From IMG/VR virus record IMGVR_UViG_2703718816_000002, positions 1-18,683 of that record: a stretch of DNA of 18,683 nt; one strand, given 5' to 3'. Every line of letters starts with the position of its first letter. Position 1 is the first letter of the stretch. The position numbers and the translations under genes were made by a program. The notes beneath the pieces are model-generated. The model ran no database searches and was not told the origin of the DNA. It saw only the letters and a list, made by a program, of their open reading frames with translations. This DNA is from a virus. Its lineage: Duplodnaviria > Heunggongvirae > Uroviricota > Caudoviricetes. Below, piece after piece: positions 1 through 13,979 of the stretch.

Positions 1-209
1 TCTCCAGGATTTCCGGGGCGGTTCACTTCGGCTCTTGTCCAGCGTCTTCCTCGAAGTCGGCTAACAATGTCAGCGCCAATCCTTGTTGCTTTCGCCATTA
101 CTGCTTTTTCAGTCCTTTCCAGTTTTTCAGCGATAACTTCAACTGGCATTGTCGCCGCTACTTCGCGCAAGAAATCGACTTCCCATTTCTCCCATGGAGT
201 CTTTTTCAT
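1..209 (-). CDS. hypothetical phage early protein, 3' end cut by window edge
   Basis: Not in the ORF track because it runs off the window. ATG at 209-207 on the minus strand; my translation begins MKKTPWEKWEVDFLREVAATMPVEVIAEKLERTEKAVMAKATRIGADIV and stays open to position 1. Same orientation as the upstream operon, 11 nt after the previous gene's stop. No family recognised. Confidence 0.35.
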   Translation of the reverse strand, partial: MKKTPWEKWEVDFLREVAATMPVEVIAEKLERTEKAVMAKATRIGADIVSRLRGRRWTRAEVNRPGNPG

Positions 210-220
210 AGGCGATACCG

Positions 221-703
221 TTATTTGATAAGAAGTGAAGGTTTCCCAACTTTGAGTTGAGCACCGGGGATATTTATTCCTGCCTTTAGTTGGTGCTTGA
301 TTGCCAACTTGTCGGCTTTAATTGTCGTTTCGAACTCAACGTATTCAGGAGGAAGGGCGCTTGAGTCGATGATTTCTACAGTTTCTGACGGTTTGCGGAT
401 TGTTACCTGGTGAATACCTGCTCGAATCTTTTTCTTGCCAACCATTTCAAGCGATGACGCTATATATGCCATAATGCTATCAATCTTATTTTGAATTACT
501 GCTGCTCGTTCATTCAGTGACTTTGCCTCGTCCTTGAGGCGTTCAGCATAACCAGATTCATTTTTAATAATGGCAAGAAGTTGCTCTATTTTATCGGTAA
601 ATTCTCCTTCCATGCCTTCTATTGTGTCAGCAATCATCTCTGGCTCTAAATCTGAATCCATCAGCTTTGCGTATTCATTGGCTATTTCATACAGTTTGCT
701 CAC
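221..703 (-). CDS. Gam-like / Gp157-family protein (putative host-nuclease inhibitor) downstream of recT
   Basis: ORF-track 221..709. The track start is TTG placed directly against a GGAGG; a GTG at 703-701 sits 6 nt after that GGAGG and is the likelier start. N-terminal coiled-coil-like region then a beta-rich C-terminal part (KIRAGIHQVTIRKPSETVEI), the architecture I associate with Mu Gam / Sipho_Gp157 proteins found next to RecT. Family assignment from memory only. Confidence 0.45.
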   Translation of the reverse strand: MSKLYEIANEYAKLMDSDLEPEMIADTIEGMEGEFTDKIEQLLAIIKNESGYAERLKDEAKSLNERAAVIQNKIDSIMAYIASSLEMVGKKKIRAGIHQVTIRKPSETVEIIDSSALPPEYVEFETTIKADKLAIKHQLKAGINIPGAQLKVGKPSLLIK

Positions 704-1589
704 TGGCAACCTCCAGTTTCGCTTTGCATTCTATGTAAATGGCTTGTACGTTCTGCTGCAATTTCATTCCAGATGTCAGGCGATATGCTTCTGCAAAATA
801 TCGCTTCAAATCATCCATGTTTTCTGCCTGAGCCATTTCATCACAAAGAAGTTGTGCTTTTTCCATAAATTCCTGCTGGCGTTTCCGTTCATCTTCGCGG
901 ATATCTTCCTCTGATTTGTGCGGCATAACTGGTTCCCGATGCATACCTTCATCTTCGTTAAGCAGGTGAATGGCATTATCCAGTCGCTGGGCTTTAGGCC
1001 AGTATTTGCTGGCGCGTTTAACTATGGTTTTACGCGCCATCTCTTCCCAGAATGTCTTCCACGGTCCATTCTTTGCCTTGCTCGTTGCTTCCACAGCTTT
1101 AATTTCTGCCAGACTCATTTCTTCAGTGAGGTAGTCACCATCTGCTGTTTTAACCGTGCAATAACCACCAACAATAGAGCCTCGCTCATCAAATGCGTTG
1201 TATTTGTGGGTTGGTGCTGAATCAAGGCCGTTTGATTCATAGGTGTCGTTTGAGTACACCAGTTTGCATTGTCCCCATTTAATTGAGCCTGTCGATTGCG
1301 CAAGATGAAGTAATCCCATGTAACTGATATCAAGGCACACCATGCCGTCGCGCGGAACCAGATAAGCCAGTTTGCTAGCCGGGTTTAAGGTGATGCCGAT
1401 CGCCGCAACATTGATGATGGCGTTCTGTGCGCTGGTTGGATTTGCCAGTGCCGTTTTAGCCAGGTAATCATTTTTCTGGAAATACTGAATTGCAAACTGG
1501 CTTTCCTTAGCCCATGTCACCGTCTGTTCAGTCAATGCTCCGCAGAATAACTGCTCCTGCTGTTTAACGAATTCAACGATATTGCTCAT
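687..1589 (-). CDS. recT: RecT-family single-strand annealing recombinase
   Basis: 300-aa ORF. The block GPWKTFWEEMARKTIVKRASKYWP closely parallels the conserved RecT block (GPWVTHWEEMAKKTAIRRLFKYLP in Rac RecT, recalled). ATG at 1589 preceded by GGAGAAG; start overlaps the upstream ORF stop (ATGA). Confidence 0.85.
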   Translation of the reverse strand: MSNIVEFVKQQEQLFCGALTEQTVTWAKESQFAIQYFQKNDYLAKTALANPTSAQNAIINVAAIGITLNPASKLAYLVPRDGMVCLDISYMGLLHLAQSTGSIKWGQCKLVYSNDTYESNGLDSAPTHKYNAFDERGSIVGGYCTVKTADGDYLTEEMSLAEIKAVEATSKAKNGPWKTFWEEMARKTIVKRASKYWPKAQRLDNAIHLLNEDEGMHREPVMPHKSEEDIREDERKRQQEFMEKAQLLCDEMAQAENMDDLKRYFAEAYRLTSGMKLQQNVQAIYIECKAKLEVASEQTV

Positions 1590-1897
1590 GCAGCTTCTCC
1601 ATAAATATGTCTGCGTTTGAATATTGCGAAGGCATATTCAGCCTTAACTCTTTCGGTTATTGCATCCCAGAACCATTCAGCGGCTTTTTCCTGATAGTTA
1701 CAGTCATCATATTCCAGCCAGTCGATAGCGTCCTTAGTGTGTTCATCTGGTTTATATGAGCGAAGCATTTCGCTTATTGGGTCGCAACGTTTGCAGAGGC
1801 GATCAACTTCACTGTTGATTCGTTCGTAATCATCATCGGTAAAACTTGCGATGATTTGCGATATTTCACGCTTATCATTCAGAGTCAGAATCATCAT
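1586..1897 (-). CDS. hypothetical early-left operon protein (103 aa)
   Basis: ORF-track 1586..1897. ATG start, acidic protein, stop overlaps the recT start (ATGA), in the operon position where lambdoid phages carry small accessory genes. No family recognised. Confidence 0.5.
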   Translation of the reverse strand: MMILTLNDKREISQIIASFTDDDYERINSEVDRLCKRCDPISEMLRSYKPDEHTKDAIDWLEYDDCNYQEKAAEWFWDAITERVKAEYAFAIFKRRHIYGEAA

Positions 1898-1978
1898 CTT
1901 TCTCCTGTTCTTTGTGCTGATTGAGCATTTCTTTCATCTGACGAATGAATTCTTCGTCTGACCAGTTATCTGTAAAAC

Positions 1979-2131
1979 TCATTTCCTGCGATACCACGGA
2001 AGGTTGATAGCTGATTTCATCGCTTTATTTGCTTCAAGCCACATTTTGGAATCACCAATAAATCGGGCTATTACTGCTTTGTTTTGTGCCGCACGAAGCA
2101 TCTGGTGATTGATGGCTATTTCATTGCGCAT
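1979..2131 (-). CDS. kil: Kil-like small protein (50 aa)
   Basis: Not in the ORF track (too short). Translates as MRNEIAINHQMLRAAQNKAVIARFIGDSKMWLEANKAMKSAINLPWYRRK. The segment VIARFIGDSKMW resembles lambda Kil (IATFIGDEKMF, recalled from memory). GGAGG 4 nt upstream of the ATG; overlaps the 3' end of the CIII-like ORF as kil does with cIII in lambda. Confidence 0.45.
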   Translation of the reverse strand: MRNEIAINHQMLRAAQNKAVIARFIGDSKMWLEANKAMKSAINLPWYRRK

Positions 2132-2250
2132 AACGCCTCCAGTTGTTTCTTTGCTGCTCTGATTAATTGTTTAACTCGTCGTGATAATTCAGATTCGTGC
2201 GGGTAGAAAGCGGACATGACGCCGCTACCCGCGAGCTGAAAGTGCATCAT
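2116..2250 (-). CDS. cIII: CIII-like small protein (putative FtsH inhibitor, 44 aa)
   Basis: The ORF track gives 2116..2325 (69 aa), but an internal ATG-ATG at 2250 has an AAGGAG 7 nt upstream. Product MMHFQLAGSGVMSAFYPHESELSRRVKQLIRAAKKQLEALCAMK. The core ESELSRRVKQL parallels the lambda CIII core ESLLERITRKL (recalled). Position just upstream of the kil-like ORF matches the lambda order. Confidence 0.5.
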   Translation of the reverse strand: MMHFQLAGSGVMSAFYPHESELSRRVKQLIRAAKKQLEALCAMK

Positions 2251-2325
2251 GGGTAACTCCTTATATTTGATTGCATAACGAAAACGCCTCGAGTGAAACA
2301 TTATTGGTATGCGGTAAAGCCGCAC

Positions 2326-2694
2326 TTAGTCGGCCTTGATAGTCATATCATCTGAATCAAATATTCCTGATGTATCGATATCGGTAATTCTTATTCCTTC
2401 GCTACCATCCATTGGAGGCCATCCTTCCTGACCATTTCCATCATTCCAGTCGAACTCACAAACAACACCATATGCATTTAGGTCTTTTGAAATTGCTATA
2501 AGCAGAGCATGTTGCGCCAGCATGATTAATACAGCATTTAATACAGCGCCGTGTTTATTGAGTCGGTATTCAGAGTCTGACCAGAAATTATTAATCTGGT
2601 GAAGTTTTTCCTCTGTCATTAGGTCATGGTCGATTTCAATTTCTATTGATGCTTTCCAGTCGTAATCAATGATGTATTTTTTGATGTTTGACAT
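2326..2694 (-). CDS. hypothetical phage protein (122 aa)
   Basis: ORF-track 2326..2694. ATG start with GAGGA 9 nt upstream; first gene after the terminator at 2713-2740. Acidic C-terminus. No family recognised with confidence. Confidence 0.5.
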   Translation of the reverse strand: MSNIKKYIIDYDWKASIEIEIDHDLMTEEKLHQINNFWSDSEYRLNKHGAVLNAVLIMLAQHALLIAISKDLNAYGVVCEFDWNDGNGQEGWPPMDGSEGIRITDIDTSGIFDSDDMTIKAD

Positions 2695-2712
2695 CTATTC
2701 ATATCCTCATAG

Positions 2713-2740
2713 ATAAAAAATCGCCCTCACATTGGAGGGC
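2713..2740 (-). terminator. Rho-independent terminator (tL1-like) in the pL operon
   Basis: On the minus strand: GCCCTC caatgt GAGGGC (perfect 6-bp stem, 6-nt loop) then GA TTTTTT. Lies between the 156-aa ORF and the 122-aa ORF, in the pL operon downstream of N. Confidence 0.6.
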
Positions 2741-2844
2741 AAAGAAGATTTCCAACAATCAGAACAAGTCGGCTCCTGTTTAGTTACGAGCGACATTGCT
2801 CCGTGTATTCACTCGTTGGAATGAATACACAGTGCTTATTCGTA

Positions 2845-3315
2845 CTAATAAAATACCCAGTTTTCTGTTTCTTGGTTGTGTCCAAAGTTATATTCAATAT
2901 CTGGTGTTGATGTATCAATATTCTTCATCCCATCAACAAGAGTTGATACAACAGCCAAATCTTGTTTGATTCTCATTAAATGGTATTTCTTCCGGCGCAA
3001 TAAACTTTCAATAGCAAGTTTCTTCGTTGGGAATGCAAAAGATCTTTCTGCATTTTTTGCTACTTTCTTAATTGCATATCTATTTCTCCTTTGTTTCCAT
3101 TCCTGTAACCACTGATTTGGTGCTGGTTTAAAATTAACAATCCAATGCGCAGGAACCAACCATGCATAATGCTCTGTCTGATGAAAAGCTATATATTGAA
3201 GTGCGAATATTTTTATCCCATCTTCTTCAACTGTCGCCTGGAATCTCCAGAAAACAGGCATTCCATCATGTTCAGTTTCTGATTCAGGAAAAGGTACGCT
3301 CCATGATTTTGTCAT
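2845..3315 (-). CDS. hypothetical AT-rich accessory gene immediately downstream of N (156 aa)
   Basis: ORF-track 2845..3315. ATG at 3315 with GAGGTG 4-5 nt upstream. Visibly more AT-rich than the flanking N and recombination genes. No family recognised. Confidence 0.55.
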   Translation of the reverse strand: MTKSWSVPFPESETEHDGMPVFWRFQATVEEDGIKIFALQYIAFHQTEHYAWLVPAHWIVNFKPAPNQWLQEWKQRRNRYAIKKVAKNAERSFAFPTKKLAIESLLRRKKYHLMRIKQDLAVVSTLVDGMKNIDTSTPDIEYNFGHNQETENWVFY

Positions 3316-3373
3316 ATCTCACCTCAAATAAGTGGTTTGCTGCCTAATTTCATTTTCTGGCGACCAACACAAG

Positions 3374-3757
3374 TCACCTCGCCGTCAGTTGTTTTGATTT
3401 CCGGTAGCCTGCCGCGTAAATGGCTACGTTTGGAAGACATACACCAGTTTCTGGTTGCTTATGTCCAAACTCATTCGCGTACACAATGGCCGCTCGCTCC
3501 AGATTGCGTCTGTATTCTTTCTGTTGCCAGATCACGTCCTGTGCCATGAACTTAATTGGCTTAGCGTCTTCTATGCGCTCAGGCGTTTCGTGAGTACCTT
3601 TAGCCTGAATCTGCGCTCTGCTTAGAGTAGGGCGGTGTAATACTTCTGAACTTATTGCTTCTTCGCGGGCCAGTACGCCGTTAGCTAATGCCTTTGCCTT
3701 TAAACGCTCACGACGACGAGAACGTGAATTGCCTTTGAACTGAGTTCTGCGTGTCAT
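3374..3757 (-). CDS. N: N-like transcription antiterminator (P22 gp24 / phage-21 type rather than lambda N)
   Basis: The ORF track extends to 3859, but the internal ATG at 3757 has AGGAGG 5 nt upstream and starts with the arginine-rich motif MTRRTQFKGNSRSRRRERLKAKA expected at an N protein N-terminus. C-terminus LPNVAIYAAGYRKSKQLTAR matches the P22 N-analogue C-terminus as I recall it. Sits just downstream of pL and a boxB element. Confidence 0.8.
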   Translation of the reverse strand: MTRRTQFKGNSRSRRRERLKAKALANGVLAREEAISSEVLHRPTLSRAQIQAKGTHETPERIEDAKPIKFMAQDVIWQQKEYRRNLERAAIVYANEFGHKQPETGVCLPNVAIYAAGYRKSKQLTAR

Positions 3758-3885
3758 ATAGACCTCCTGATGAACTTTGGTGGTGAATACAGCCGGGCGA
3801 CTAACTCCGGTCGCGTAATCATTGCAAAGCGCCTCCGCCGAGAAGGTTAGCTTCTGCATTCACCCCAAAGTTCACTTTGGTTATT

Positions 3886-3900
3886 GCGCTTTGTCAGCGC
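3886..3900 (-). promoter_or_regulatory. nutL boxB hairpin (P22-type GCGCUGACAAAGCGC)
   Basis: Minus-strand sequence GCGCTGACAAAGCGC: 4-bp GC stem with a 7-nt loop UGACAAA, in the pL leader upstream of N. The same loop is seen in the nutR-position element at 6743-6757. No convincing boxA (CGCTCTT-like) found near it. Confidence 0.7.
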
Positions 3901-3968
3901 CGTAGATTCATATTCGAATCGTTGTATATTCACCGCCCTGGTGAGTAGTGCGTCCTGCTGATGTGTTT

Positions 3969-4031
3969 AGTATCACCGCCAGTGGTATTTATGTCAACAC
4001 CGCTAGAGATAATTCATCACCGCAGATGGTT
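3969..4031 (-). promoter_or_regulatory. pL promoter with operators OL1, OL2, OL3
   Basis: OL1 TATCACCGCCAGTGGTA (3971-3987), OL2 CAACACCGCTAGAGATA (3995-4011), OL3 CATCACCGCAGATGGTT (4015-4031). On the minus strand, -35 TTGACA (3997-3992) and -10 GATACT (3974-3969) with a 17-bp spacer. Matches the lambda oL/pL arrangement as recalled. Confidence 0.85.
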
Positions 4032-4179
4032 ATCTGTATGTTTTTTATATGAATTTATTTTTTGAATTGGGGTATTGCTTTGGAGGGCGAGAGATCAGAA
4101 TTGCGATGTTTAGTGAGTTGTATCTATTTATTTTCAAATAAATACAATTGGTTATGTGTTTTTAGGTGGGCGAACGTGA

Positions 4180-4210
4180 GGCAAAGAAAACCCGGCGCTG
4201 AGGCCGGGTT
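4180..4210 (-). terminator. Rho-independent terminator closing the cI operon (tImm-like)
   Basis: On the minus strand: AACCCGGC ctcagc GCCGGGTT followed by TTCTTTG. Located 7 nt after the stop of the 206-aa ORF, between that ORF and oL. Confidence 0.65.
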
Positions 4211-4216
4211 AATGCG

Positions 4217-4837
4217 TTAATGCTGGGGAGTGATTTTTTTGTTGTCTGTTGGCTGGGTATTTTGTGGCGGCGCTTGCAAAGTGGAAGGCTGTTGCAAAGG
4301 TGCGTGGTCTGACTTTAAAGCTGATACCAGCCCGGGAATAGCAACTATTACAGCGATAATGACACTAAAAATGGCTAATCGTATAGAAATACCCGACTGA
4401 ACACCACTAATTGCGGTATTAACCCCTGTTATTTGTCCTTGAATTCCTTCGAATCTCCCATTAATTGCTTTTATATCGCCAGCAGCGCTATCCATCTTTC
4501 CATCGATCTTGGACGATAGAGAGCTTATGGCTGCATTAAGTGATGCAAATTGGACATTAACGCTTTCACGAGATAGAGCCATGTCAGCCCTAATGGAAGA
4601 AGCAATAGACTCCATCTCTGCTTTATTAGCAGCTAAGCGAGCATCAAGTTCCTCTCTGCTGATCGTTCCCACTTCTTCCTCCGTTTGTGGCGGTTTTATG
4701 TAATTATTTTGCACCTTGGTGGGAGAATTATCAAATTCAGCCTCAAAATCGGAACCGCCAACAACCTTCAACCTCCGGCTTTCAGATATGTTGGTGTCTT
4801 GCTTTCCATGATTATTTAAATTACTGTCGTCACTCAT
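4217..4837 (-). CDS. hypothetical coiled-coil protein with a single C-terminal transmembrane anchor (206 aa), in the rexB position
   Basis: ORF-track 4217..4837. ATG start overlaps the stop of the upstream 144-aa ORF (ATGA). Low-complexity N-terminus, central Ala/Ser-rich heptad-like segment, then a hydrophobic stretch IRLAIFSVIIAVIVAIPGLVSAL and a Pro/Gln-rich tail. Not RexB-like (RexB is polytopic). Confidence 0.6.
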   Translation of the reverse strand: MSDDSNLNNHGKQDTNISESRRLKVVGGSDFEAEFDNSPTKVQNNYIKPPQTEEEVGTISREELDARLAANKAEMESIASSIRADMALSRESVNVQFASLNAAISSLSSKIDGKMDSAAGDIKAINGRFEGIQGQITGVNTAISGVQSGISIRLAIFSVIIAVIVAIPGLVSALKSDHAPLQQPSTLQAPPQNTQPTDNKKITPQH

Positions 4838-5268
4838 AATAGCTCTACGGTGAAAAATGATTCATTTTTATGAAGTTCATTTTTAGGGTCTTCATTATCT
4901 TGCAATATCCCTATAACACTATATAGCCCTTTAGCTGGGACCCTAATTTCTTTCAATGTTACTATTACCTGTCCGCCAACCCCTGTTTCAAAATGGCTAT
5001 CTTTCGTATCGATGAAAAGTGAAACTGATTCCGAAGAGCCGTCAGGGAATTGAATTTCCTCACCTTTTTTTATAATTAGGTGCGCGGGGATTACCATAAT
5101 ACCCAAATTATATCTTGAATTTGGTTTCAACCCGATCATACCAACCCTGAAATCAATTGATAGCCGCGCAGGAAATTCATTGCATGTAAAATTAAGCGTC
5201 GGTTGGTTGGGTTCTTCGCTGCTATCAAATGGGGTTATAAAAGATATTCTTTCTAAATTAAGTGCCAT
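4834..5268 (-). CDS. hypothetical protein (144 aa), in the rexA position
   Basis: The ORF track gives 4834..5322, but the internal ATG at 5268 has AGGAG 6 nt upstream and yields MALNLERISFITPF... Predicted soluble and beta-rich. Translationally coupled to the 206-aa ORF. No family recognised. Confidence 0.55.
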   Translation of the reverse strand: MALNLERISFITPFDSSEEPNQPTLNFTCNEFPARLSIDFRVGMIGLKPNSRYNLGIMVIPAHLIIKKGEEIQFPDGSSESVSLFIDTKDSHFETGVGGQVIVTLKEIRVPAKGLYSVIGILQDNEDPKNELHKNESFFTVELL

Positions 5269-5318
5269 AAATTCTCCTGCATCGCTGTATGCTCTACGAG
5301 CATCTCTGCGACCATCCA

Positions 5319-5338
5319 TCATCCAAACGTCTCTTCAC
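5319..5338. repeat. second copy of the cI 3'-terminal sequence, downstream of the 113-aa gene
   Basis: TCATCCAAACGTCTCTTCA at 5319-5337 versus TCACCCAAACGTCTCTTCA at 5690-5708 (cI stop plus its last five codons): 18 of 19 identical. On the minus strand the second copy reads ATG AGT GAA GAG ACG TTT GGA TGA (MSEETFG-stop), mimicking the cI C-terminus PEETFG-stop. Confidence 0.85.
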
Positions 5339-5680
5339 TCATCCGAAGAAGCAGCAATCCGGGTCAGCACGCACAAGCTCAAGCGCATCAGTCAGCGAAA
5401 GTTCAGTACTGTACTGATGCCATTTCATATCCTTCCGCATCCAATAGATTTTCCATCTATCCAGAGAACGTATGTACTTGATTCTTGCTGATGGCAGGAT
5501 GTTTGTTTCACCTGGGTTGCCCTGCCACACGGGGCGCTGTTCGCCGATATCTATCGTTTGGTCATTGATGCTATAAACAATATCCAGTTCATTGCGGATA
5601 TGTTCAGGCGGCCTTATGCTTTCAATGAATTGGTGAACTTCTTTTTTGACCGCTTGATATTCAAGGTCAGTGAACGCCAT
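5339..5680 (-). CDS. hypothetical protein (113 aa) immediately downstream of cI
   Basis: ORF-track 5339..5680. ATG at 5680, 9 nt after the cI stop, with GAGGAGG 5 nt upstream, so it should be co-transcribed with cI from pRM. Ends CCFFG. Bracketed by the duplicated cI 3'-end sequence. No family recognised. Confidence 0.6.
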   Translation of the reverse strand: MAFTDLEYQAVKKEVHQFIESIRPPEHIRNELDIVYSINDQTIDIGEQRPVWQGNPGETNILPSARIKYIRSLDRWKIYWMRKDMKWHQYSTELSLTDALELVRADPDCCFFG

Positions 5681-5689
5681 CTATCCTCC

Positions 5690-6406
<717 letters not shown>

Positions 6407-6413
6407 TTAAATC

Positions 6414-6479
6414 TATCACCGCAAGGGATAAATATCTAACACCGTGCGTGTTGACTATTATACCTCTAGCGGTGATAAT
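6414..6479. promoter_or_regulatory. oR operator region (OR3, OR2, OR1) with divergent pRM and pR
   Basis: OR3 TATCACCGCAAGGGATA (6414-6430), OR2 TAACACCGTGCGTGTTG (6437-6453), OR1 TACCTCTAGCGGTGATA (6461-6477). pR -35 TTGACT (6451-6456) and -10 GATAAT (6474-6479). Cro RBS AAGGAGG at 6493-6499. Confidence 0.9.
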
Positions 6480-6503
6480 GATTGCCTGTACTAAGGAGGT
6501 TGT

Positions 6504-6704
6504 ATGGAACAACGCATAACCCTGAAAGATTATGCAATACGCTTTGGGCAAACCAAGACGGCTAAAGATCTCGGCGTATATCAAAGCGCGATTAACAAGG
6601 CCATTCATGCAGGCCGAAAGATTTTTTTAACTATAAACGCTGATGGAAGCGTTTATGCGGAAGAAATAAAGCCCTTCCCAAGTAACAAAAAAACAACTGC
6701 ATAA
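6504..6704 (+). CDS. cro: Cro repressor, lambda type
   Basis: 66 aa, [66 protein letters not shown], near-identical to lambda Cro as recalled. Strong RBS, directly downstream of pR. Confidence 0.95.
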
Positions 6705-6711
6705 GTAACAC

Positions 6712-6757
6712 CGCTCTTTTCACAATGGACATTCGTCCTACGTCGCTGACAAAGCGA
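6712..6757 (+). promoter_or_regulatory. nutR-like site: boxA (CGCTCTTTT) and boxB (TCGCTGACAAAGCGA)
   Basis: boxA-like CGCTCTTTT at 6712-6720, 8 nt after the cro stop. A hairpin at 6743-6757 carries the same UGACAAA loop as the nutL boxB. The loop is the P22 type, not the lambda type (GCCCUGAAAAAGGGC). Confidence 0.65.
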
Positions 6758-6842
6758 GTCCCAATATATCTGACCAACTAAGGCCATATGCGTTTCCACG
6801 CATACCTTTCAACTAGCTATTCACTATTGGAAATCTTAAGAA

Positions 6843-7139
6843 ATGGAACAAACAAGTTACAGCAAACTATCACAGCGAGAAATTGATCGCGCTGAAACTG
6901 ATTTACTCATCAACCTGTCAACGCTTACCCAGCGCGGTCTGGCAAAGATGATTGGCTGTCATGAATCGAAGATAAGCAGAACGGACTGGAGATTTATTGC
7001 TTCGGTCTTGTGTGCTTTCGGAATGGCATCAGACATCAGTCCGATTAGTAGGGCTTTTAAGTATGCGCTTGATGGAATCACAAAGAAAAAATCCCCGGTG
7101 GCCGCCGGGGACTCTAAGCAAATTGATATGCAATTCTGA
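6843..7139 (+). CDS. cII: CII-like transcriptional activator (diverged from lambda CII)
   Basis: 98 aa in the cII position between nutR and O. HTH-like RGLAKMIGCHESKISRTDW and C-terminus KQIDMQF parallel lambda CII (SQISRWKRDW and EQIQMEF, recalled), but the rest differs. Weak RBS. Confidence 0.6.
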   Translation: MEQTSYSKLSQREIDRAETDLLINLSTLTQRGLAKMIGCHESKISRTDWRFIASVLCAFGMASDISPISRAFKYALDGITKKKSPVAAGDSKQIDMQF

Positions 7140-7171
7140 GGGAATTACTGGATCAATCCACAGGAGTCATT

Positions 7172-8071
7172 ATGACAAATACAGCAAAAATACTCAACTT
7201 CGGCAGAGGTAACTTTGCCGAACAGGAGCGTAATGTGGCAGATCTCGATGATGGTTACGCCAGACTATCAAATATGCTGCTTGAGGCTTATTCAGGCGCA
7301 GATCTGACCAAGCGACAGTTTAAAGTGCTGCTTGCCATTCTGCGTAAAACCTATGGGTGGAATAAACCAATGGACAGAATCACCGATTCTCAACTTAGCG
7401 AGATTACAAAGTTACCCGTCAAACGGTGCAATGAAGCCAAGTTAGAACTCGTCAGAATGAATATTATCAAGCAGCAAGGCGGCATGTTTGGACCAAATAA
7501 AAACACCTCAGAATGGTGCATCCCTCAAAACGAGGGAAAATCCCCTAAAACGAGGGATAAAACATCCCTCAAATTAGGGGATTGCTATCCCTCAAAACAG
7601 GGGGACACAAAAGACACTATTACAAAAGAAAAAAGAAAAGATTATTCGTCCGAGAATTCTGGCGAATCCTCTGACCAGCCAGAAAACGATCTTTCTGTGG
7701 TTAAACCGGATGCTGCAATTCAGAGCGGCAGCAAGTGGGGAACAGCAGAAGACCTGACCGCCGCAGAGTGGATGTTTGACATGGTGAAGACCATCGCACC
7801 ATCAGCCAGAAAACCGAATTTTGCAGGGTGGGCTAACGATATCCGCCTGATGCGTGAACGTGACGGACGTAACCACCGCGACATGTGCGTGCTGTTCCGC
7901 TGGGCATGCCAGGACAACTTCTGGTCCGGTAACGTGCTAAGTCCGGCCAAACTCCGCGACAAGTGGACCCAACTCGAAATCAACCGTAACAAGCAACAGG
8001 CTGGCGTGACAGCTGGAAAACCAAAACTCGACCTGACAAACACTGACTGGATTTACGGGGTGGATTTATGA
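7172..8071 (+). CDS. O: replication initiator O, lambda type
   Basis: 299 aa, MTNTAKILNFGRGNFAEQERNVADLDDGYARLSNMLLEAYSGADLTKRQFKVLLAILRKTYGWNKPMDRITD... as in lambda O (recalled). Contains the iteron array internally. RBS CAGGAG. Confidence 0.95.
   Translation: MTNTAKILNFGRGNFAEQERNVADLDDGYARLSNMLLEAYSGADLTKRQFKVLLAILRKTYGWNKPMDRITDSQLSEITKLPVKRCNEAKLELVRMNIIKQQGGMFGPNKNTSEWCIPQNEGKSPKTRDKTSLKLGDCYPSKQGDTKDTITKEKRKDYSSENSGESSDQPENDLSVVKPDAAIQSGSKWGTAEDLTAAEWMFDMVKTIAPSARKPNFAGWANDIRLMRERDGRNHRDMCVLFRWACQDNFWSGNVLSPAKLRDKWTQLEINRNKQQAGVTAGKPKLDLTNTDWIYGVDL
7520..7645 (+). repeat. ori-lambda-type origin: four iterons plus AT-rich tract inside O
   Basis: Iterons TCCCTCAAAACGAGGGA (7521-7537), TCCCCTAAAACGAGGGA (7541-7557), TCCCTCAAATTAGGGGA (7565-7581), TCCCTCAAAACAGGGGGA (7588-7605), each internally palindromic, followed by an A-rich tract to about 7645. 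Confidence 0.85.
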
Positions 8072-8769
8072 AAAACATCGCCGCACAGATGGTTAACTTT
8101 GACCGTGAGCAGATGCGTCGGATCGCCAACAACATGCCGGAACAGTACGACGAAAAGCCGCAGGTACAACAGGTAGCGCAGATCATCAACGGTGTGTTCA
8201 GCCAGTTACTGGCAACTTTCCCGGCGAGTCTGGCTAACCGGGACCAGAACGAACTGAATGAAATCCGCCGCCAGTGGGTTCTGGCTTTCCGGGAAAACGG
8301 GATCACCTCGATGGAACAGGTTAACGCAGGAATGCGCGTAGCCCGTCGGCAGAATCGACCATTTCTTCCATCACCCGGGCAGTTTGTTGCATGGTGCCGG
8401 GAAGAAGCATCCGTTATCGCCGGACTGCCAAACGTCAGCGAGCTGGTTGATATGGTTTACGAGTATTGCCGGAAGCGTGGCCTGTATCCGGATGCAGAGT
8501 CTTATCCGTGGAAATCAAACGCGCACTACTGGCTGGTTACCAACCTGTACCAGAACATGCGGGCCAATGCGCTGACTGACGCGGAATTACGGCGCAAGGC
8601 TGCCGATGAACTGACCTGTATGACAGCACGAATTAACCGTGGTGAGACGATACCTGAACCAGTAAAACAACTTCCTGTCATGGGCGGCAGACCTCTAAAT
8701 CGAGCACAGGCTCTGGCGAAGATCGTAGAAATCAAAGCTAAGTTCGGACTGAAAGGAGCCAGTGTATGA
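8068..8769 (+). CDS. P: replication protein P (DnaB helicase loader), lambda type
   Basis: 233 aa, start overlaps the O stop (ATGA). MKNIAAQMVNFDREQMRRIANNMPEQYDEK... matches lambda P as recalled. Confidence 0.93.
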   Translation: MKNIAAQMVNFDREQMRRIANNMPEQYDEKPQVQQVAQIINGVFSQLLATFPASLANRDQNELNEIRRQWVLAFRENGITSMEQVNAGMRVARRQNRPFLPSPGQFVAWCREEASVIAGLPNVSELVDMVYEYCRKRGLYPDAESYPWKSNAHYWLVTNLYQNMRANALTDAELRRKAADELTCMTARINRGETIPEPVKQLPVMGGRPLNRAQALAKIVEIKAKFGLKGASV

Positions 8770-9056
8770 CAGGCAAAGAGGCAATTCTTCATTACCTGGG
8801 GACTCATAAGAACTTCTGTGCACAGGACGTTTCCGCGGTAACAGGCGCAACCGTAACCAGCATAAATCAGGCTGCGGCTAAAATGGCGCGGGCAGGAATC
8901 CTGGTCATTGATGGTAAGGTCTGGCGAACGGTGTATTACCGGTTTGCTACCAGGGAAGAACGGGAAGGAAAGGTGAGCACGAACCTGATTTTTAAGGAGT
9001 GTCGCCAGAGTGCAGTGATGAAACGGGTATTGGCGGTATATGGAGTTAAAAGATGA
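8766..9056 (+). CDS. ren: Ren protein, lambda type
   Basis: 96 aa, start overlaps the P stop. MTGKEAILHYLGTHKNFCAQDVSAVTGATVTSINQAAAKMARAGILVIDG... matches lambda Ren as recalled. Confidence 0.85.
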   Translation: MTGKEAILHYLGTHKNFCAQDVSAVTGATVTSINQAAAKMARAGILVIDGKVWRTVYYRFATREEREGKVSTNLIFKECRQSAVMKRVLAVYGVKR

Positions 9057-9082
9057 CCATCTACATCACTGAGCTTGTAACA

Positions 9083-9113
9083 GGCCTGCTGGTAATCGCA
9101 GGCCTTTTTATTT
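9083..9113 (+). terminator. Rho-independent terminator (tR2-like) downstream of ren
   Basis: GGCCTGC tggtaatc GCAGGCC (7-bp stem, 8-nt loop) followed by TTTTTATTT. Confidence 0.7.
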
Positions 9114-9141
9114 GGGGGAGAGTAATTGGAGGATTTAAGAA

Positions 9142-9357
9142 ATGAGTACGATAGCTGAGCTTGTCAGGGCTAATTTTCGTGAAGAGTTGGTGCGTTGGTA
9201 TCGGTATCGTTCATCGTCAAGTTTGCCGCTTGATGAGTTGTATGAGCATTCACCTGCCGCACGACGCTATCCGCGTGACCGTGTTCTTCGGCGGTTGTTC
9301 AGACTCAACAATGAGTTTCAGCGCAACAGAATAATCCGGAGTCTGGATTTAAAGTGA
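9142..9357 (+). CDS. hypothetical arginine-rich small protein (71 aa)
   Basis: ORF-track 9142..9357. ATG with GGAGGA 8 nt upstream. Lies between the tR2-like terminator and ninB. No family recognised. Confidence 0.5.
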   Translation: MSTIAELVRANFREELVRWYRYRSSSSLPLDELYEHSPAARRYPRDRVLRRLFRLNNEFQRNRIIRSLDLK

Positions 9358-9367
9358 AGGAGTGAGC

Positions 9368-9550
9368 ATGAGCGAGCAAATATTCAGAGAGATTAAGCCA
9401 CGGTTTTATCGCAAGGTAAGGGTAGTTTATCAGGACGAAAACAAGACCTGTGCATACGCCATTCATAATGGTCGGTGGTCAGTGTTCGACACCAAAAACT
9501 TCGAGAAGAACTTCGAGAGGATTAAGGGTGATGAGGAAACTAACATTTGA
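9368..9550 (+). CDS. hypothetical small protein (60 aa)
   Basis: The ORF track starts at a GTG at 9362; the ATG at 9368 has AAGGAG 5 nt upstream. 3' end overlaps the ninB start by about 20 nt. No family recognised. Confidence 0.4.
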   Translation: MSEQIFREIKPRFYRKVRVVYQDENKTCAYAIHNGRWSVFDTKNFEKNFERIKGDEETNI

Positions 9551-9971
9551 ACTAAGAAGCCCCATCCATCAGCAGAACGCCATTCAAGCTATCCAGCAAA
9601 TCCTTCCAGACCCAACCAAACCAATCGTAGTAAGCATTCAGGAACGCAACCGCAGCTTAGACCAGAATCGAAAGCTTTGGGCTTGCCTTGGTGACGTCTC
9701 TCGTCAGGTTGAATGGCATGGGCGCTGGCTGGATGCAGAAAGCTGGAAGTGTGTGTTTACCGCAGCATTAAAGCAGCAGGATGTTGTTCCTAACCTTGCC
9801 GGGAATGGCTTTGTGGTAATAGGCCAGTCAACCAGCAGGATGCGTGTAAGCGAATTTGCGGAGCTATTAGAGCTTATACAGGCATTCGGTACAGAGCGTG
9901 GCGTTAAGTGGTCAGACGAAGCGCGACTGGCTCTCGAATGGAAAGCGCGATGGGGAGATCGGGCTGCATGA
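9531..9971 (+). CDS. ninB: NinB (Orf-family recombination mediator)
   Basis: The ORF track extends upstream to 9450; starting at the ATG at 9531 gives 146 aa, MRKLTFELRSPIHQQNAIQAIQQILPDPTKPIVVSIQERNRSLDQNRKLWACLGDVSRQVEWHGRWLDAESWK..., matching lambda NinB as recalled. Confidence 0.9.
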   Translation: MRKLTFELRSPIHQQNAIQAIQQILPDPTKPIVVSIQERNRSLDQNRKLWACLGDVSRQVEWHGRWLDAESWKCVFTAALKQQDVVPNLAGNGFVVIGQSTSRMRVSEFAELLELIQAFGTERGVKWSDEARLALEWKARWGDRAA

Positions 9972-10495
9972 CTATCAAATCAAATACGCCAGCACACGAC
10001 AAGGACTGCTGGCAAACGCCGCTTTGGCTTTTTGATGCACTGGATATTGAGTTTGGATTCTGGCTGGATTCGGCAGCGAGCGACAAAAATGCTCTGTGCG
10101 CTCACTGGTTAACTGAGGCCGACGACGCGCTAAATTCTGAGTGGATAAGCCACGGTGCAATCTGGAATAACCCGCCGTACAGCAATATCAGGCCGTGGGT
10201 GGAAAAAGCCGCTGAGCAGTGCATACAACAACGACAGACGGTAGTGATGCTTGTGCCAGAGGATATGTCTGTCGGATGGTTCAGTAAGGCTCTGGAGAGT
10301 GTTGACGAAGTTCGCATCATCACTGATGGACGGATTAATTTTATCGAACCATCGACAGGGCTGGAGAAGAAGGGAAACAGCAAAGGTTCCATGCTGCTGA
10401 TTTGGCGACCGTTCATCAGTCCTCGACGGATGTTTACTACCGTATCCAAAGCGGCATTGATGGCGATCGGGCAGGGCGTCAGGAGGGCGGCATGA
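9968..10495 (+). CDS. phage DNA N6-adenine methyltransferase (Dam-type, NPPY motif)
   Basis: The ORF track starts at 9908; the ATG at 9968 overlaps the ninB stop (ATGA) and gives 175 aa. Contains [12 protein letters not shown] and the catalytic-type motif NPPYS, typical of the phage Dam family found in nin regions. Confidence 0.8.
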
Positions 10496-10683
10496 GGCGA
10501 CAGCGACGAAGTATCACCGACATCATCTGCGAAAACTGCAAATACCTTCCAACGAAACGCTCCAGAAATAAACGCAAGCCAATCCCAAAAGAATCTGACG
10601 TAAAAACCTTCAATTACACGGCTCACCTGTGGGATATCAGGTGGCTAAGACATCGTGCGAGGAAAACAAGGGGATTGACGTGA
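10492..10683 (+). CDS. ninE: NinE
   Basis: The ORF track starts at 10402; the ATG at 10492 overlaps the methyltransferase stop (ATGA). [60 protein letters not shown] matches lambda NinE as recalled. Confidence 0.85.
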
Positions 10684-10766
10684 TGATTTATCCGGGGCTA
10701 TATTCCTCACACGCCAGCAAAATCTGGCGTCGGGATTAGCACCCCGGATGTTTACGGAGCGATATG

Positions 10767-10788
10767 AGACGCGCCCGCGTCTTTTTTC
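10767..10788 (+). terminator. candidate Rho-independent terminator in the nin region
   Basis: AGACGC gccc GCGTCT (6-bp stem, 4-nt loop) followed by TTTTTT. Confidence 0.55.
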
Positions 10789-10951
10789 ATATCGTTTGCA
10801 CAGTCACATTCGCGATTTATGGCGGGCTGTGTGGGGGAGCCGAAAGGCTCGCCGGTTTCCGTACCCGGTAGTGCTAACCCCGCACAGTTCGCCACCATGA
10901 TGATTAGCACCTGACGGTGGCGATAATGTCCAAATGTACGGAGTTATCGTT

Positions 10952-11656
10952 ATGGCCACTCAGATTTCTGTCGAAACTCTTTCCCCAATTACACACAACC
11001 AAATTCCCGTTATCACTACCGAGTTACTGGCACAGCTTTACTGTACCGAGATCAACAACATCAAAGTAAATTACACCCGTAATTCCGAGCGTTTTGTTGA
11101 GGGTAAACACTTTTTCAAGGTTGTTGGTGATGAGTTGAAAATTTTGCGGGTTACTTTAAGTAACTCACAAAATTTGCAACCATCTTTAAGAGGGTTACAA
11201 ATTTCCCCGAAAGCCCGCTCCCTCATCCTCTGGACAGAACGCGGAGCAGCCCGTCACGCCAAAATGCTCGAAACCGATCAGGCGTGGGAAGTGTTCGAAA
11301 AACTGGAAGACTGCTATTTTAGCCAGTGCGAGAAAAATACTGGCAAACAAGAGAAGAAGCTCAACGGGCTTTCCGCAAAAGAAACAGACAGCCTTGTATG
11401 GCTGTGGGATTATGCTAACCGCTCACAGGCATTATTCCGCGAATTGTATCCAGCGCTAAAGCAAATTCAATCGAACTATTCCGGCAGATGTTACGACTAC
11501 GGTCATGAGTTCTCGTATGTTATTGGAATGGCGAGAGACGTTTTAATCAATCACACACGAGATGTTGATATTAATGAGCCAGACGGACCAACGAATCTTT
11601 CCGCATGGGTAAGGCTTAAGAACAAAGAATTACCTCCTTCACTACATCGCTACTGA
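10952..11656 (+). CDS. ORF6N-domain phage protein (antirepressor-like)
   Basis: The ORF track starts at 10934; the second in-frame ATG at 10952 has GGAG 8 nt upstream. The N-terminal half ([46 protein letters not shown]...[32 protein letters not shown]) has the pattern I associate with the ORF6N / KilA-N-like domain. Assignment by recollection. Confidence 0.55.
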
Positions 11657-11673
11657 CAATTGACAACTTAACA

Positions 11674-11699
11674 AACCCAGCTTCGGCTGGGTTTTTTAT
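11674..11699 (+). terminator. strong Rho-independent terminator with a UUCG tetraloop
   Basis: AACCCAGC ttcg GCTGGGTT (8-bp stem, UUCG loop) followed by a T-run and ATT. Confidence 0.8.
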
Positions 11700-11724
11700 T
11701 GGTGAATTTTCAATATGAGAGGAC

Positions 11725-12453
11725 ATGACAATGAACGAGCTGATAAATAGCAACGTCATCAAAATGACCAGCATTGAAATCTCTGAGCTTACAGGTAAGC
11801 GTCATGACAATGTGAAACGTACTATCGAAATGCTGGCTAAAAATGGTGTTATCCGACATCCTCAAATTGAGGATTGTGGAAGAATCAATGGGTTAGGCTT
11901 AAATCAAAGTTTTCGTGTGTATGTATTCGAAGGCGAACAAGGTAAGCGAGACAGCATTATTGTCGTTGCCCAGTTGTCGCCGGAATTCACCGCTCGTCTT
12001 GTTGACCGTTGGCGAGAGCTTGAAGACGCTGCGGTTAATATCCCCAAAACTCTACCAGAAGCGTTGCGCCTTGCTGCTGATCTTGCTGAGCAGAAAATGC
12101 AACTGGAAAACCAGCTCGCAATTGCCGCACCTAAAGTTGAGTTTGCCGATCGCGTTGGCGAGGCCAGCGGAATTTTGATTGGAAACTATGCAAAGGTTGT
12201 TGGTATTGGTCCAAACAAACTGTTTGCGTGGATGCGCGAACACAAAATCCTTATTGCTTCAGGTTCCCGGTGCAATGTGCCAATGCAGGAATATATGGAT
12301 CGCGGCTATTTCACAGTGAAAGAAACAGCGGTCAATACAAATCACGGAATACAGATATCGTTCACCACAAAAATCACCGGGCGTGGTCAACAGTGGCTGA
12401 CCAGAAAGCTGCTCGATAACGGAATGCTGAAAGTAACAGGGGAGGCTGCTTAA
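11725..12453 (+). CDS. phage antirepressor: Rha-family N-terminal domain plus KilAC-type C-terminal domain
   Basis: 242 aa. N-terminal SIEISELTGKRHDNVKRTIEMLAKNG is Rha-like; C-terminal GNYAKVVGIGPNKLFAWMREHKILIASGSR is KilAC-like. Start could be 11725 or the ATG at 11731; the GAGAGGA RBS favours 11731. Confidence 0.75.
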   Translation: MTMNELINSNVIKMTSIEISELTGKRHDNVKRTIEMLAKNGVIRHPQIEDCGRINGLGLNQSFRVYVFEGEQGKRDSIIVVAQLSPEFTARLVDRWRELEDAAVNIPKTLPEALRLAADLAEQKMQLENQLAIAAPKVEFADRVGEASGILIGNYAKVVGIGPNKLFAWMREHKILIASGSRCNVPMQEYMDRGYFTVKETAVNTNHGIQISFTTKITGRGQQWLTRKLLDNGMLKVTGEAA

Positions 12454-12743
12454 TGGCTAACCTACGCAAAGAAGCGCGCGGCAGAGAATGCCAGGTACGT
12501 ATTTACGGCGTATGCAATGGAAACCCTGAAACTACAGTTCTGGCACATTACCGGATGGCTGGAATTTGCGGAATGGGAATGAAGCCTGACGACCTGATCG
12601 GCGCATGGGCTTGTAGCGCGTGTCACGATGAAATCGACCGACGCACCCATAACCTCGACAACAAAGACGCCAGACTTTACCACCTTGAAGGCGTGATCAG
12701 GACGCAGGCGATACTGCTGAAGGAGGGGAAGATTAAGCCATGA
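12453..12743 (+). CDS. ybcO: YbcO-like (DUF1364) putative nuclease
   Basis: 96 aa. MANLRKEARGRECQVRIYGVCNGNPETTVLAHYR...ACSACHDEIDRRTH parallels E. coli YbcO as recalled. Start overlaps the antirepressor stop; GGGGAGG RBS. Confidence 0.7.
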   Translation: MANLRKEARGRECQVRIYGVCNGNPETTVLAHYRMAGICGMGMKPDDLIGAWACSACHDEIDRRTHNLDNKDARLYHLEGVIRTQAILLKEGKIKP

Positions 12744-13102
12744 ACGAATATCAGTTTGTGCTTCCATATCCGCCGTCGCTGAACACCTACTGGCGAAGAC
12801 GGGGAAGCCAATACTACATCAGCGATAAAGGCCAGAAATACCGAAAAGACGTTCAGCAAATCATCCGCCAACTCAAGTTAGACATTTTCACCAAATCACG
12901 ACTCCGTATCAAAGTCATCGCAGACGTTCCAGACTCCCGCCGCCGCGACCTCGACAACATCCTGAAAGGTTTACTCGACTCCCTTATCCACGCCGGATTT
13001 GCGGAAGACGACGAGCAATTCGATGACATTCGCGTAATTCGTGGTGTGAAAGTATCAGGTGGGAGGCTTGGAATAAAAATCACAGAACTGGAGTGCGCAT
13101 GA
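12740..13102 (+). CDS. rusA: RusA-family Holliday junction resolvase
   Basis: 120 aa. LPYPPSLNTYWRRRG, the catalytic-region motif RRRDLDN and C-terminal GGRLGIKITELE parallel E. coli RusA as recalled. Start overlaps the ybcO-like stop (ATGA). Confidence 0.85.
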   Translation: MNEYQFVLPYPPSLNTYWRRRGSQYYISDKGQKYRKDVQQIIRQLKLDIFTKSRLRIKVIADVPDSRRRDLDNILKGLLDSLIHAGFAEDDEQFDDIRVIRGVKVSGGRLGIKITELECA

Positions 13103-13764
13103 ATAACCAGTATTTACAGTTTGTGCGTGAGCAGCTCATTATCGCTACCGCTGATTTGAGTGGGGCAACAAAAGGTCAGCTTGAAGCCTGGCAAGAGAAT
13201 GCCATGTTCGATACAGGGCGTTACAGGCGAAAAAAAATCCGGTACCGCGATGAAGTGACTGGAAAAATGATAACGCGGGATAATCCACCAATCCCGGGGA
13301 AGCAATCGCTGGCGAAGGGGACGTCAATTCCTCTGGTCAGTCCGGTTGAGTTTTCGACATCATCGTGGCGGCGGGCTGTTCTGTCTCTTGAAGAACATCA
13401 TAAAGCTTGGTTGTTGTGGTGTTACAGCGAGAGCATTTGTTGGGAATATCAGATCGCGATAACACAGTGGGCGTGGAATGAATTTAATACTCAATCCGGT
13501 ACCAGAAAAATTGCAGGGAAAACGCAGGAACGCCTGAAAAAATTAATCTGGCTGGCGGCGCAGGCAGTAAAAGCAGAACTTTTTGGTGGGGAAGGTTACG
13601 AATACCAGGAACTGGCGTTACTGGTGGGAGTAACAACCAAAAACTGGTCCAAGACATTTACTGGTCACTGGGTTGCAATGAAACACATTTTTCATCGGCT
13701 GGATAGTGAAGCTTTATTGTTGGTGGAGGGAACACGTTCAAAACAAAAGGCGGCATTTTCATAG
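13099..13764 (+). CDS. candidate late-gene antiterminator (Q-like) by position; family not recognised
   Basis: The ORF track starts at a GTG at 13093; the ATG at 13099 overlaps the rusA stop and has GGAG 6 nt upstream. 221 aa. Assigned only by synteny: last gene of the nin region, immediately upstream of a promoter plus short-transcript terminator. No similarity to lambda Q that I can see. Confidence 0.4.
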   Translation: MNNQYLQFVREQLIIATADLSGATKGQLEAWQENAMFDTGRYRRKKIRYRDEVTGKMITRDNPPIPGKQSLAKGTSIPLVSPVEFSTSSWRRAVLSLEEHHKAWLLWCYSESICWEYQIAITQWAWNEFNTQSGTRKIAGKTQERLKKLIWLAAQAVKAELFGGEGYEYQELALLVGVTTKNWSKTFTGHWVAMKHIFHRLDSEALLLVEGTRSKQKAAFS

Positions 13765-13780
13765 CAAAGTATTGCAAAAG

Positions 13781-13809
13781 TAGATAAAAAGGCATATATT
13801 TCGTGTAAA
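13781..13809 (+). promoter_or_regulatory. sigma70 promoter candidate (pR-prime-like late promoter)
   Basis: -35 TTGCAA (13781-13786), 17-bp spacer, -10 TATATT (13804-13809), 17 nt after the stop of the Q-like ORF. Confidence 0.5.
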
Positions 13810-13852
13810 TCTGATATTTTGCCGTTATTATACGTGATGGCAAAGCCACTAA

Positions 13853-13876
13853 AACCCGTGACCGAGCGGGTTTTTT
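13853..13876 (+). terminator. Rho-independent terminator (tR-prime-like), about 45-60 nt downstream of the promoter
   Basis: AACCCG tgaccgag CGGGTT with a run of six T. Promoter plus this terminator would give a short RNA of roughly 60 nt, as expected for a Q-antiterminated late unit. Confidence 0.6.
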
Positions 13877-13909
13877 ACCCCCAAAAAAATGGCATAGACA
13901 TTAAACGTG
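13865..13909 (+). repeat. copy 1 of a diverged ~45-bp direct repeat flanking the membrane-protein gene
   Basis: GAGCGGGTTTTTTACCCCCAAAAAAATGGCATAGACATTAAACGTG aligns with copy 2 at 14769-14814 at roughly 70% identity by eye. Copy 1 overlaps the tR-prime-like terminator. Confidence 0.6.
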
Positions 13910-13949
13910 ATGACGATTGTGCCAATACTTTCTCCATCAATGACGCCCC

Positions 13950-13979
13950 TTGACTGCATGGAATCCAATTTGTTATGTA
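13950..13979 (+). promoter_or_regulatory. sigma70 promoter candidate for the membrane-protein cargo gene
   Basis: -35 TTGACT (13950-13955), 18-bp spacer, -10 TATGTA (13974-13979) with a TG 2 nt upstream (extended -10 context). Confidence 0.4.

Follow-up and report, generated by a model that had tools for sequence, protein, structure and literature searches.

In phage lambda the genes rexA and rexB lie in the slot between the repressor gene cI and the terminator tImm, and both they and the stk gene of phage 933W are reported to be co-transcribed with cI (PMC3564112). Together with hex of phage 434 these are among the genes on pRM transcripts to which exclusion roles have been ascribed; 933W stk is reported to abort HK97 infection, and Hex in addition renders lysogens more stable towards RecA-mediated cleavage of the repressor (PMC3564112). 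Two prophage abortive systems, BstA of Salmonella BTP1 (PMC8585504) and HigBAC (bioRxiv 10.1101/2024.02.24.581848), lie directly downstream of cI, with which they are presumed to share a promoter. These same two papers (PMC8585504; bioRxiv 10.1101/2024.02.24.581848), with Degnan 2007 as their source, present the DNA between cI and N as a hotspot of mosaic diversity and a variable defence locus. Here we describe the corresponding interval in an 18,683-nucleotide (nt) stretch of a Caudoviricetes virus (IMG/VR record IMGVR_UViG_2703718816_000002, positions 1 to 18,683), referred to below as the window, in which three genes, orfA, orfB and orfC, stand in the place of rexAB. We read orfB-orfC, tentatively and with slightly less than even confidence, as a Rex-like exclusion pair of one soluble and one membrane protein that would be expressed in the lysogen, with an independent DUF3024 gene, orfA, beside it.

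The interval between cI and tImm

Alignment of the window with lambda by blastn gave two matching parts, 3930-4211 (oL to tImm, 90% identity) and 5690-6718 (cI to cro, 96%), and no nucleotide homology to lambda within 4212-5689. Since both flanks align and nothing between them does, 4212-5689 is exactly the segment that replaces rexB-rexA. A preliminary description of the window, made from its sequence, had called cI lambda-type, the surroundings of tImm lambda-like and the rexAB slot filled by unrelated genes, and all of this was borne out. The coordinates and sizes that it gave for three minus-strand open reading frames (ORFs) of 113, 144 and 206 amino acids (aa) were also found to be correct, as were the ribosome-binding site ahead of orfA and the overlap of orfB and orfC by ATGA. 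The stop codon of cI lies at 5690-5692 and the orfA ATG follows 9 nt after it with GGAGG in between, while the orfB ATG is preceded by AGGAG. The features of the immunity region are as follows.

3969-3997, minus strand: pL promoter with oL, the left edge of the immunity region (promoter scan, 10/12 match; within the lambda-homologous part 3930-4211)
4189-4210, minus strand: tImm intrinsic terminator, the end of the pRM/pRE transcript (8-bp GC-rich stem and T-run; homologous to lambda and HK244 Timm)
4217-4837, minus strand: orfC, 206 aa, predicted C-tail-anchored coiled-coil inner-membrane protein (alignment of 23 homologues, hydropathy and heptad register)
4834-5268, minus strand: orfB, 144 aa, predicted soluble acidic beta-sandwich protein, putative partner of orfC
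5319-5337: direct-repeat copy 2, which lies downstream of orfA and duplicates the cI 3' end as non-coding sequence (repeat search and alignment with the HK244 junction)
5339-5680, minus strand: orfA, 113 aa, DUF3024/PDC-S43, a module of one gene that is separately mobile
5690-5708: direct-repeat copy 1, formed by the final 19 nt of cI with its stop (repeat search; 18/19 identical to copy 2, spacing 371 bp)
5690-6403, minus strand: cI repressor, 237 aa, lambda immunity (Pfam HTH_3 and Peptidase_S24; 96% nt identity to lambda cI)
6410-6479: oR region with pRM and pR; pRM on the minus strand, -10 TAGATT at 6410-6415 and -35 at 6433-6438, leaderless cI start at 6403
6451-6479, plus strand: pR (promoter scan)

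The positions of pRM and oR1-3 were carried over from the HK244 annotation by way of an ungapped 96% alignment of 5687-6718 to positions 2498-3529 of that sequence (L001), and the pRM hexamers were read directly from the sequence. The terminator tImm starts 7 nt past the orfC stop; no other minus-strand terminator-like site was found in 3900-6600, so there is none between cI and tImm. An internal promoter of the lambda pLit kind was considered and is not claimed, as the only candidate was a 9/12 match within orfC and the region held 3 promoter-like sites against 6.4 expected from shuffling. An Rfam scan of 4000-6600 gave no match. The layout supports a single predicted pRM-cI-tImm transcription unit of cI, orfA, orfB and orfC, which upholds the earlier placement of the genes on that unit as far as the arrangement of the sequence goes. 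As orfA and orfB-orfC would both ride on the repressor transcript, which is predicted to run from pRM/pRE through cI to tImm, their expression in the lysogen is expected, and it is very probable that they constitute two lysogen-expressed accessory modules.

Homologues of each of the three genes occur in other genera (35-88% identity), and in codon alignments of all three the proportion of nonsynonymous differences (pN 0.08-0.40) was far below that of synonymous differences (pS 0.39-0.88). Because of these homologues and the low pN, the three ORFs are, judged by their alignments, real genes under purifying selection and not chance reading frames. In the identical prophage of E. coli RM10410 the NCBI Prokaryotic Genome Annotation Pipeline (PGAP) calls an orfB product of 162 aa from an ATG at 5322 (window 4834-5322). 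We preferred the 144-aa form because the homologues from other genera are 143-144 aa long, all starting at the methionine equivalent to 5268, and because the ribosome-binding site at 5268 is also the better one. The G+C content of the orfB region (4800-5250) is 0.37-0.40 compared with 0.44-0.50 for cI and the N region, which is consistent with a foreign origin of the orfB-orfC module.

The resemblance to lambda RexA and RexB is one of place and layout. The slot is the same, as is the predicted transcription unit, and orfB-orfC would likewise consist of a soluble and a membrane protein made in the lysogen with the soluble gene first. In scans against Pfam, PADLOC, NCBIfam and PHROG none of the three proteins matched a Rex family, in line with the preliminary description, and the sizes of orfB and orfC (144 and 206 aa) differ from those of RexA and RexB (279 and 144 aa). 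RexB has four transmembrane (TM) helices, whereas orfC has one at its C-terminus together with a long coiled coil. BstA and HigBAC are unrelated to orfA, orfB and orfC in both protein and mechanism. Hex of phage 434, like orfA, is encoded after the repressor on the pRM transcript and has a history both as exclusion factor and as lysogen stabiliser; it is a 158-aa protein whose gene overlaps cI, and no kinship to orfA, orfB or orfC was evident, none having been tested for.

Modularity and the DUF3024 gene

The three genes had at first been taken for one cassette, a view that has to be given up. Phages HK244 and HK542, which lack orfA, carry orfB-orfC (HK24405-HK24404, annotated as hypothetical) at 97% nt identity, and there too the pair is flanked by a lambda-type cI and Timm. 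Among 5426 complete E. coli genomes orfA was present in 227 (about 4%) and orfB-orfC in 51, with all three genes together in 18. On these distributions the interval consists of two independently mobile modules, orfA and orfB-orfC. The former would have been slotted between the two copies of the 19-nt linker, which stems from the 3' end of cI, and according to the alignment with the HK244 junction, recombination between the copies would restore the HK244 arrangement. At about 100% identity the three-gene arrangement is also found behind S24-type repressors unrelated to lambda cI. The cI-end linker recurs as non-coding DNA between a non-lambda S24 repressor and DUF3024 in a 933W-like prophage of E. 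coli ATCC 43894 (L137, about 3843-3900), and a diverged copy is present in a Salmonella prophage. This reuse of the cI 3' end on either side of DUF3024 points to a conserved joint at which cassettes are exchanged by recombination.

A survey of what lies between cI and tImm in phages with the same flanks, as the preliminary description had proposed, returned rexAB, hicAB, an NYN gene, HK97 gp48/49 or orfB-orfC, and occupants of the slot in other prophages include Stk-like kinases (PADLOC PD-T4-6 models), NYN nucleases and HicAB. By location and by its alternative gene sets the interval belongs to the repressor-adjacent variable cargo hotspot of lambdoid prophages, and the earlier statement that the slot is typical for prophage exclusion genes agrees with the two papers that cite Degnan 2007. 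The slot and its variability had been described before, and GenBank has contained the orfB-orfC pair, as hypothetical genes, since 2007. New here are the recognition of two modules in the interval, set off by a defined 19-nt joint, the anatomy of orfC across its family with the swappable partners, and the pattern of DUF3024 as first gene after the repressor, which extends to 933W-like prophages. A literature search for the HK244/HK542 genes and for the RefSeq protein accessions gave no functional study.

The preliminary description had also called all three proteins unrecognised. This stands in so far as no known function was found, and fails in that orfA belongs to DUF3024/PDC-S43, all three proteins fall into PHROG families and orfB-orfC had been deposited with HK244 and HK542. 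For orfA the match to Pfam DUF3024 (PF11225) scored 108.7 bits (cut-off 24.9) over profile positions 2-112 of 112, and the PADLOC model PDC-S43 was matched end to end (7.2e-42, 1-115 of 115 covered); the corresponding PHROG family, phrog_3467, is without known function. The AlphaFold model of orfA (predicted local distance difference test, pLDDT, 87), a helix, a five-stranded sheet and a second helix, predicts a small soluble alpha+beta protein. Searches of the PDB by sequence and by profile gave matches at chance level. PDC entries in PADLOC are unvalidated candidates. In the literature search there was no paper on DUF3024 and a single mention of PDC-S43, in the inventory of an O157:H7 genome in which PD-T4-6 is present as well.

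In viral contigs DUF3024 directly follows a repressor at 79 of 85 loci, and all but one of those 79 repressors were S24-type by clustering. What lies downstream is far from constant, with at least 12 unrelated clusters, among them a 153-aa protein with a Stk-like kinase that matches the PADLOC PD-T4-6 and mad6 models (30 loci), a 177-aa protein (27 loci), orfB-orfC (11 loci), ParA/CbiA-like ATPases (8 loci), an NYN protein, and others. In 933W-like prophages, as in E. coli ATCC 43894 (O157:H7 lineage; L137 1932-4610) and at locus L060, the order is repressor, DUF3024, 153-aa protein (orf153) and Stk kinase, so that the known stk exclusion gene is preceded there by two uncharacterised genes. 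The DUF3024 gene there is 98.5% nt identical to orfA and is likewise first after the repressor, whereas the cargo is the kinase pair instead of orfB-orfC and the repressor is of different immunity. The accessible literature gives no role for this gene.

Two readings of orfA are open, namely a stand-alone defence candidate, as it is filed by PADLOC, or a repressor-linked factor that would tune induction or shield the prophage from its own cargo. Because its position is constant ahead of changing cargo, the second is favoured more than it would be for a random hotspot occupant. Taken to its full extent, this second reading makes orfA a lysogeny-management factor and no defence gene, either tuning RecA-dependent repressor cleavage and induction in the manner of 434 Hex or protecting the prophage from the downstream cargo at induction. 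The position after the repressor regardless of cargo, nearly always an S24-type one, speaks for it, as do the retention of the cI-3'-end linker even behind non-lambda repressors and the occurrence of DUF3024 beside DinI genes at prophage ends, and Hex provides a precedent for a pRM-encoded stabiliser (PMC3564112). Against it, DUF3024 also occurs away from any repressor, Hex is no evident relative of orfA, HK244 and HK542 run lambda immunity without orfA, and PADLOC files the protein as a defence candidate. On balance we regard a role confined to lysogeny management as unlikely.

The DUF3024 pattern may in the end matter more than the pair beside it. A conserved first gene stands between repressors and diverse defence cargoes, including the Stk operon of a 933W-like (Shiga-toxin-type) prophage, which suggests a shared and unstudied regulatory or self-protection step in lysogens.

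The orfB-orfC pair

The only hydrophobic segment of orfC lies at about residues 153-174 (Kyte-Doolittle 2.7) and is conserved in 23 homologues. The alignment of these homologues gave a layout of a variable N-terminus (1-59), a conserved helix (59-100, SREEL..LAANKAE..), Gly-faced heptads (about 107-150), the TM segment and a Pro/Gln-rich tail (176-206). The heptad register is unbroken from about residue 100 up to the TM segment, and its last six heptads, IDGKMDS, VDGDIKA, INGKFEG, IQGQITG, INTAISG and IQSGIS, have hydrophobic residues at two positions and Gly at two others. Heptad register and hydropathy thus agree with the coiled coil and single C-terminal TM helix that the preliminary description had noted. 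With a polar N-terminus, no signal peptide and one C-terminal TM segment, orfC falls into the topological class of C-tail-anchored inner-membrane proteins, which is not a homology family, and the bulk of the protein would be cytoplasmic. The tail, predicted to be periplasmic, bears a family motif PIIIQVP that is degenerate in the window copy (PSTLQAP).

By homology orfC matched phrog_5820, a PHROG family of unknown function. Positions 117-174 of the orfC profile aligned with the membrane-inserting head of SmhB (151-210) at E 0.014 over about 58 residues, and the NCBIfam models MakE (E 0.0058, 15.7 bits, cut-off 360) and MakA (E 0.18, 10.8 bits, cut-off 320) gave similar results. The likeness to the SmhB, MakA and MakE heads covers a Gly-rich amphipathic helix and a hydrophobic helix and is limited to about 58 residues (E 0.006-0.18, 11-19 bits against cut-offs of 320-360). 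Unlike these proteins orfC lacks the long helical tail domain and is not secreted, and a whole-protein match to ClyA-type alpha-pore-forming toxins, with helical tail bundle and head, was not found. We therefore treat the toxin-head similarity as a lead and not as family membership. Apart from the local SmhB match, PDB searches with orfC by sequence and by profile were at chance level.

The gene just upstream of orfC differs between homologous loci. It may be of the orfB type (143-144 aa), belong to a family whose members have about 96-101 aa, or encode either a protein of 112 aa that contains two Cys pairs or one of 92 aa; the partner families, at least four in number, are unrelated to one another. 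Partners of 97-99 aa in Yersinia and Pectobacterium were compared with orfB and proved not to be homologous. The partner family co-varies with the cluster of the orfC N-terminus (60-130 residues) while the C-terminal half is conserved, which is compatible with a membrane effector that stays constant as its partner-binding end is exchanged. Homologues of orfC are placed directly behind prophage repressors, either of S24 type or HTH-only, in Citrobacter, Phytobacter, Pectobacterium, Yersinia (1 of 2 loci) and 41 viral contigs; a few loci have no upstream repressor, and one Yersinia copy is found among cargo at a prophage end.

In the Pfam, PADLOC, PHROG and NCBIfam scans orfB matched phrog_5893 only, a family whose function is unknown. 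The family is very small, with 12 clusters among 5.8 billion proteins, and a profile search of 1.84 billion representatives gave 23 proteins, of which several long repetitive ones were judged to be spurious. The model is a 7-strand beta-sandwich (pLDDT 67), consistent with the beta-rich product described earlier, and its fold matches were generic Ig/FN3/GH2-type domains or unnamed phage proteins. PDB matches by sequence and profile were again at chance level.

Two other DUF3024 loci (L118 4101-4738 and L123 4403-5091) have, beside the repressor, a gene for a small soluble protein followed by one for a short tail-anchored coiled-coil membrane protein. These membrane proteins were examined as remote orfC homologues and rejected (hhalign probability <1%), and we consider them architectural analogues only; neither locus has detectable homology to orfB either. 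A soluble protein paired with a tail-anchored coiled-coil protein may be an arrangement that recurs in this slot.

Position and architecture together suggest a defence role, and that at least one of the two modules acts against phages seems to us slightly more probable than that neither does. For an exclusion pair we would propose the following course. The two genes would be translationally coupled, with orfC held in the inner membrane by its one C-terminal helix and its heptad coiled coil in the cytoplasm, the last six heptads with their Gly face running directly into the membrane helix. The orfB beta-sandwich would bind the variable orfC N-terminus and hold or sense, until a cue from an infecting phage frees orfC to oligomerise through the coiled coil. 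It would then either damage the inner membrane, through depolarisation or a pore, or close it to incoming DNA, and infection would stop. Permeabilisation of the membrane by orfC is a possibility that we hold to be somewhat doubtful.

Several points weigh against this reading of the pair. No experiment or paper tying orfA, orfB or orfC to phage resistance came out of the literature search, none of the three proteins matched a validated defence family in PADLOC, orfB and orfC matched no PADLOC model at all and PDC-S43 has only candidate status there. The orfB model is only moderately confident and its fold matches are generic. The toxin-head similarity of orfC is local (58 residues), near threshold and may be compositional, and physical linkage could give the same co-variation of partner and N-terminus. 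A simple pore triggered from the cytoplasm would also have no need of the conserved periplasmic PIIIQVP, which is degenerate in the window copy.

That last motif leads to a different possibility, non-abortive superinfection exclusion, in which an inner-membrane orfC with a short periplasmic tail would block entry of the incoming genome. HK97 gp15, P22 SieA and T4 Imm are the comparators for such a function. The tail-anchored topology, the conserved periplasmic motif and the Pro/Gln-rich tail found family-wide would suit it, and so would the predicted expression in lysogens and the finding of orfB-orfC in prophages only. A simple entry block, however, requires neither a large cytoplasmic coiled coil nor a co-varying cytoplasmic partner, the motif is degenerate in the very copy at hand, and neither SieB nor any other Sie model was matched in Pfam or PADLOC. 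We consider this explanation improbable.

It is less probable still that orfB-orfC is an addiction pair, with orfC as membrane toxin and orfB as its neutraliser, which stabilises the prophage rather than sensing phages. The pair is translationally coupled with a small soluble protein directly upstream of a membrane protein, and in related phages this slot is taken by HicAB and HigBAC. Toxin-antitoxin pairs from the slot have proved to be defence systems (bioRxiv 10.1101/2024.02.24.581848), so this explanation overlaps with that of an exclusion pair. Against it, orfB has no DNA-binding domain, and autoregulation is unlikely because the pair would, from the operon layout, be driven from pRM. The Pfam, PADLOC, PHROG and NCBIfam scans found no helix-turn-helix, ribbon-helix-helix, toxin or antitoxin family in orfB or orfC, and the pair does not qualify as a type II toxin-antitoxin system.

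Very unlikely, finally, is that orfA-orfC are lysogenic-conversion cargo that alters host physiology (envelope, stress tolerance) with no anti-phage role, orfC perhaps acting like the tail-anchored host proteins ElaB and YqjD, for although the tail-anchored coiled-coil architecture of orfC may resemble theirs and orfB and orfC have no defence-family matches, DUF883 (the ElaB family) was absent in the Pfam scan, the pair is strictly limited to the repressor-adjacent slot or other prophage moron positions, and the quick exchange of partners and N-termini resembles arms-race diversification.

If the orfB-orfC pair does exclude phages, the defence repertoire would gain a protein family without known relatives and a simple model of one membrane effector that is re-targeted by sensor swap. 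A bolder version, which we put forward as speculation with little confidence, joins the two modules, the orfC family as a swappable-sensor abortive-infection effector and DUF3024 as a gatekeeper coupled to the repressor. The tail-anchored glycine-zipper coiled coil of orfC would then be a new effector class, mechanistically akin to the heads of alpha-pore-forming toxins, with trigger specificity set by an exchangeable cassette of partner gene and orfC N-terminus. DUF3024 for its part would not be a stand-alone defence gene but would tune induction or shield the prophage against the defence cargo that it carries.

Other features of the window

Beyond the immunity region an intact N antiterminator ORF was found at 3374-3859 on the minus strand (Pfam N_peptide, 5e-16), with an arginine-rich motif from an internal methionine, MTRRTQFKGNSRSRRRERLKAKA. 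In RM10410, whose genome is 100% identical, the PGAP annotation at the N position is confined to a 69-nt pseudogene fragment. Just beyond N lies a hypothetical ORF of 156 aa (2845-3315, minus strand) which belongs to no Pfam family; it is identical to WP_000167595 and is found in the same relative position in RM10410 and in the 933W-like prophage.

On the plus strand at 10698-10899, Rfam matches to c4-a1b1 targets, isrK and C4 antisense RNA make up an antisense control element of the P1/P7 type. In the matching RM10410 prophage the C4-type element is located upstream of annotated antirepressor genes, and this arrangement suggests a second, immI-like immunity layer in the lambdoid prophage of the window. 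Further along, three tRNA genes (15981-16229) are followed by the small RNA STnc100 (16342-16550) and, on the minus strand at 16551-16610, by the anti-GcvB small RNA AgvB.

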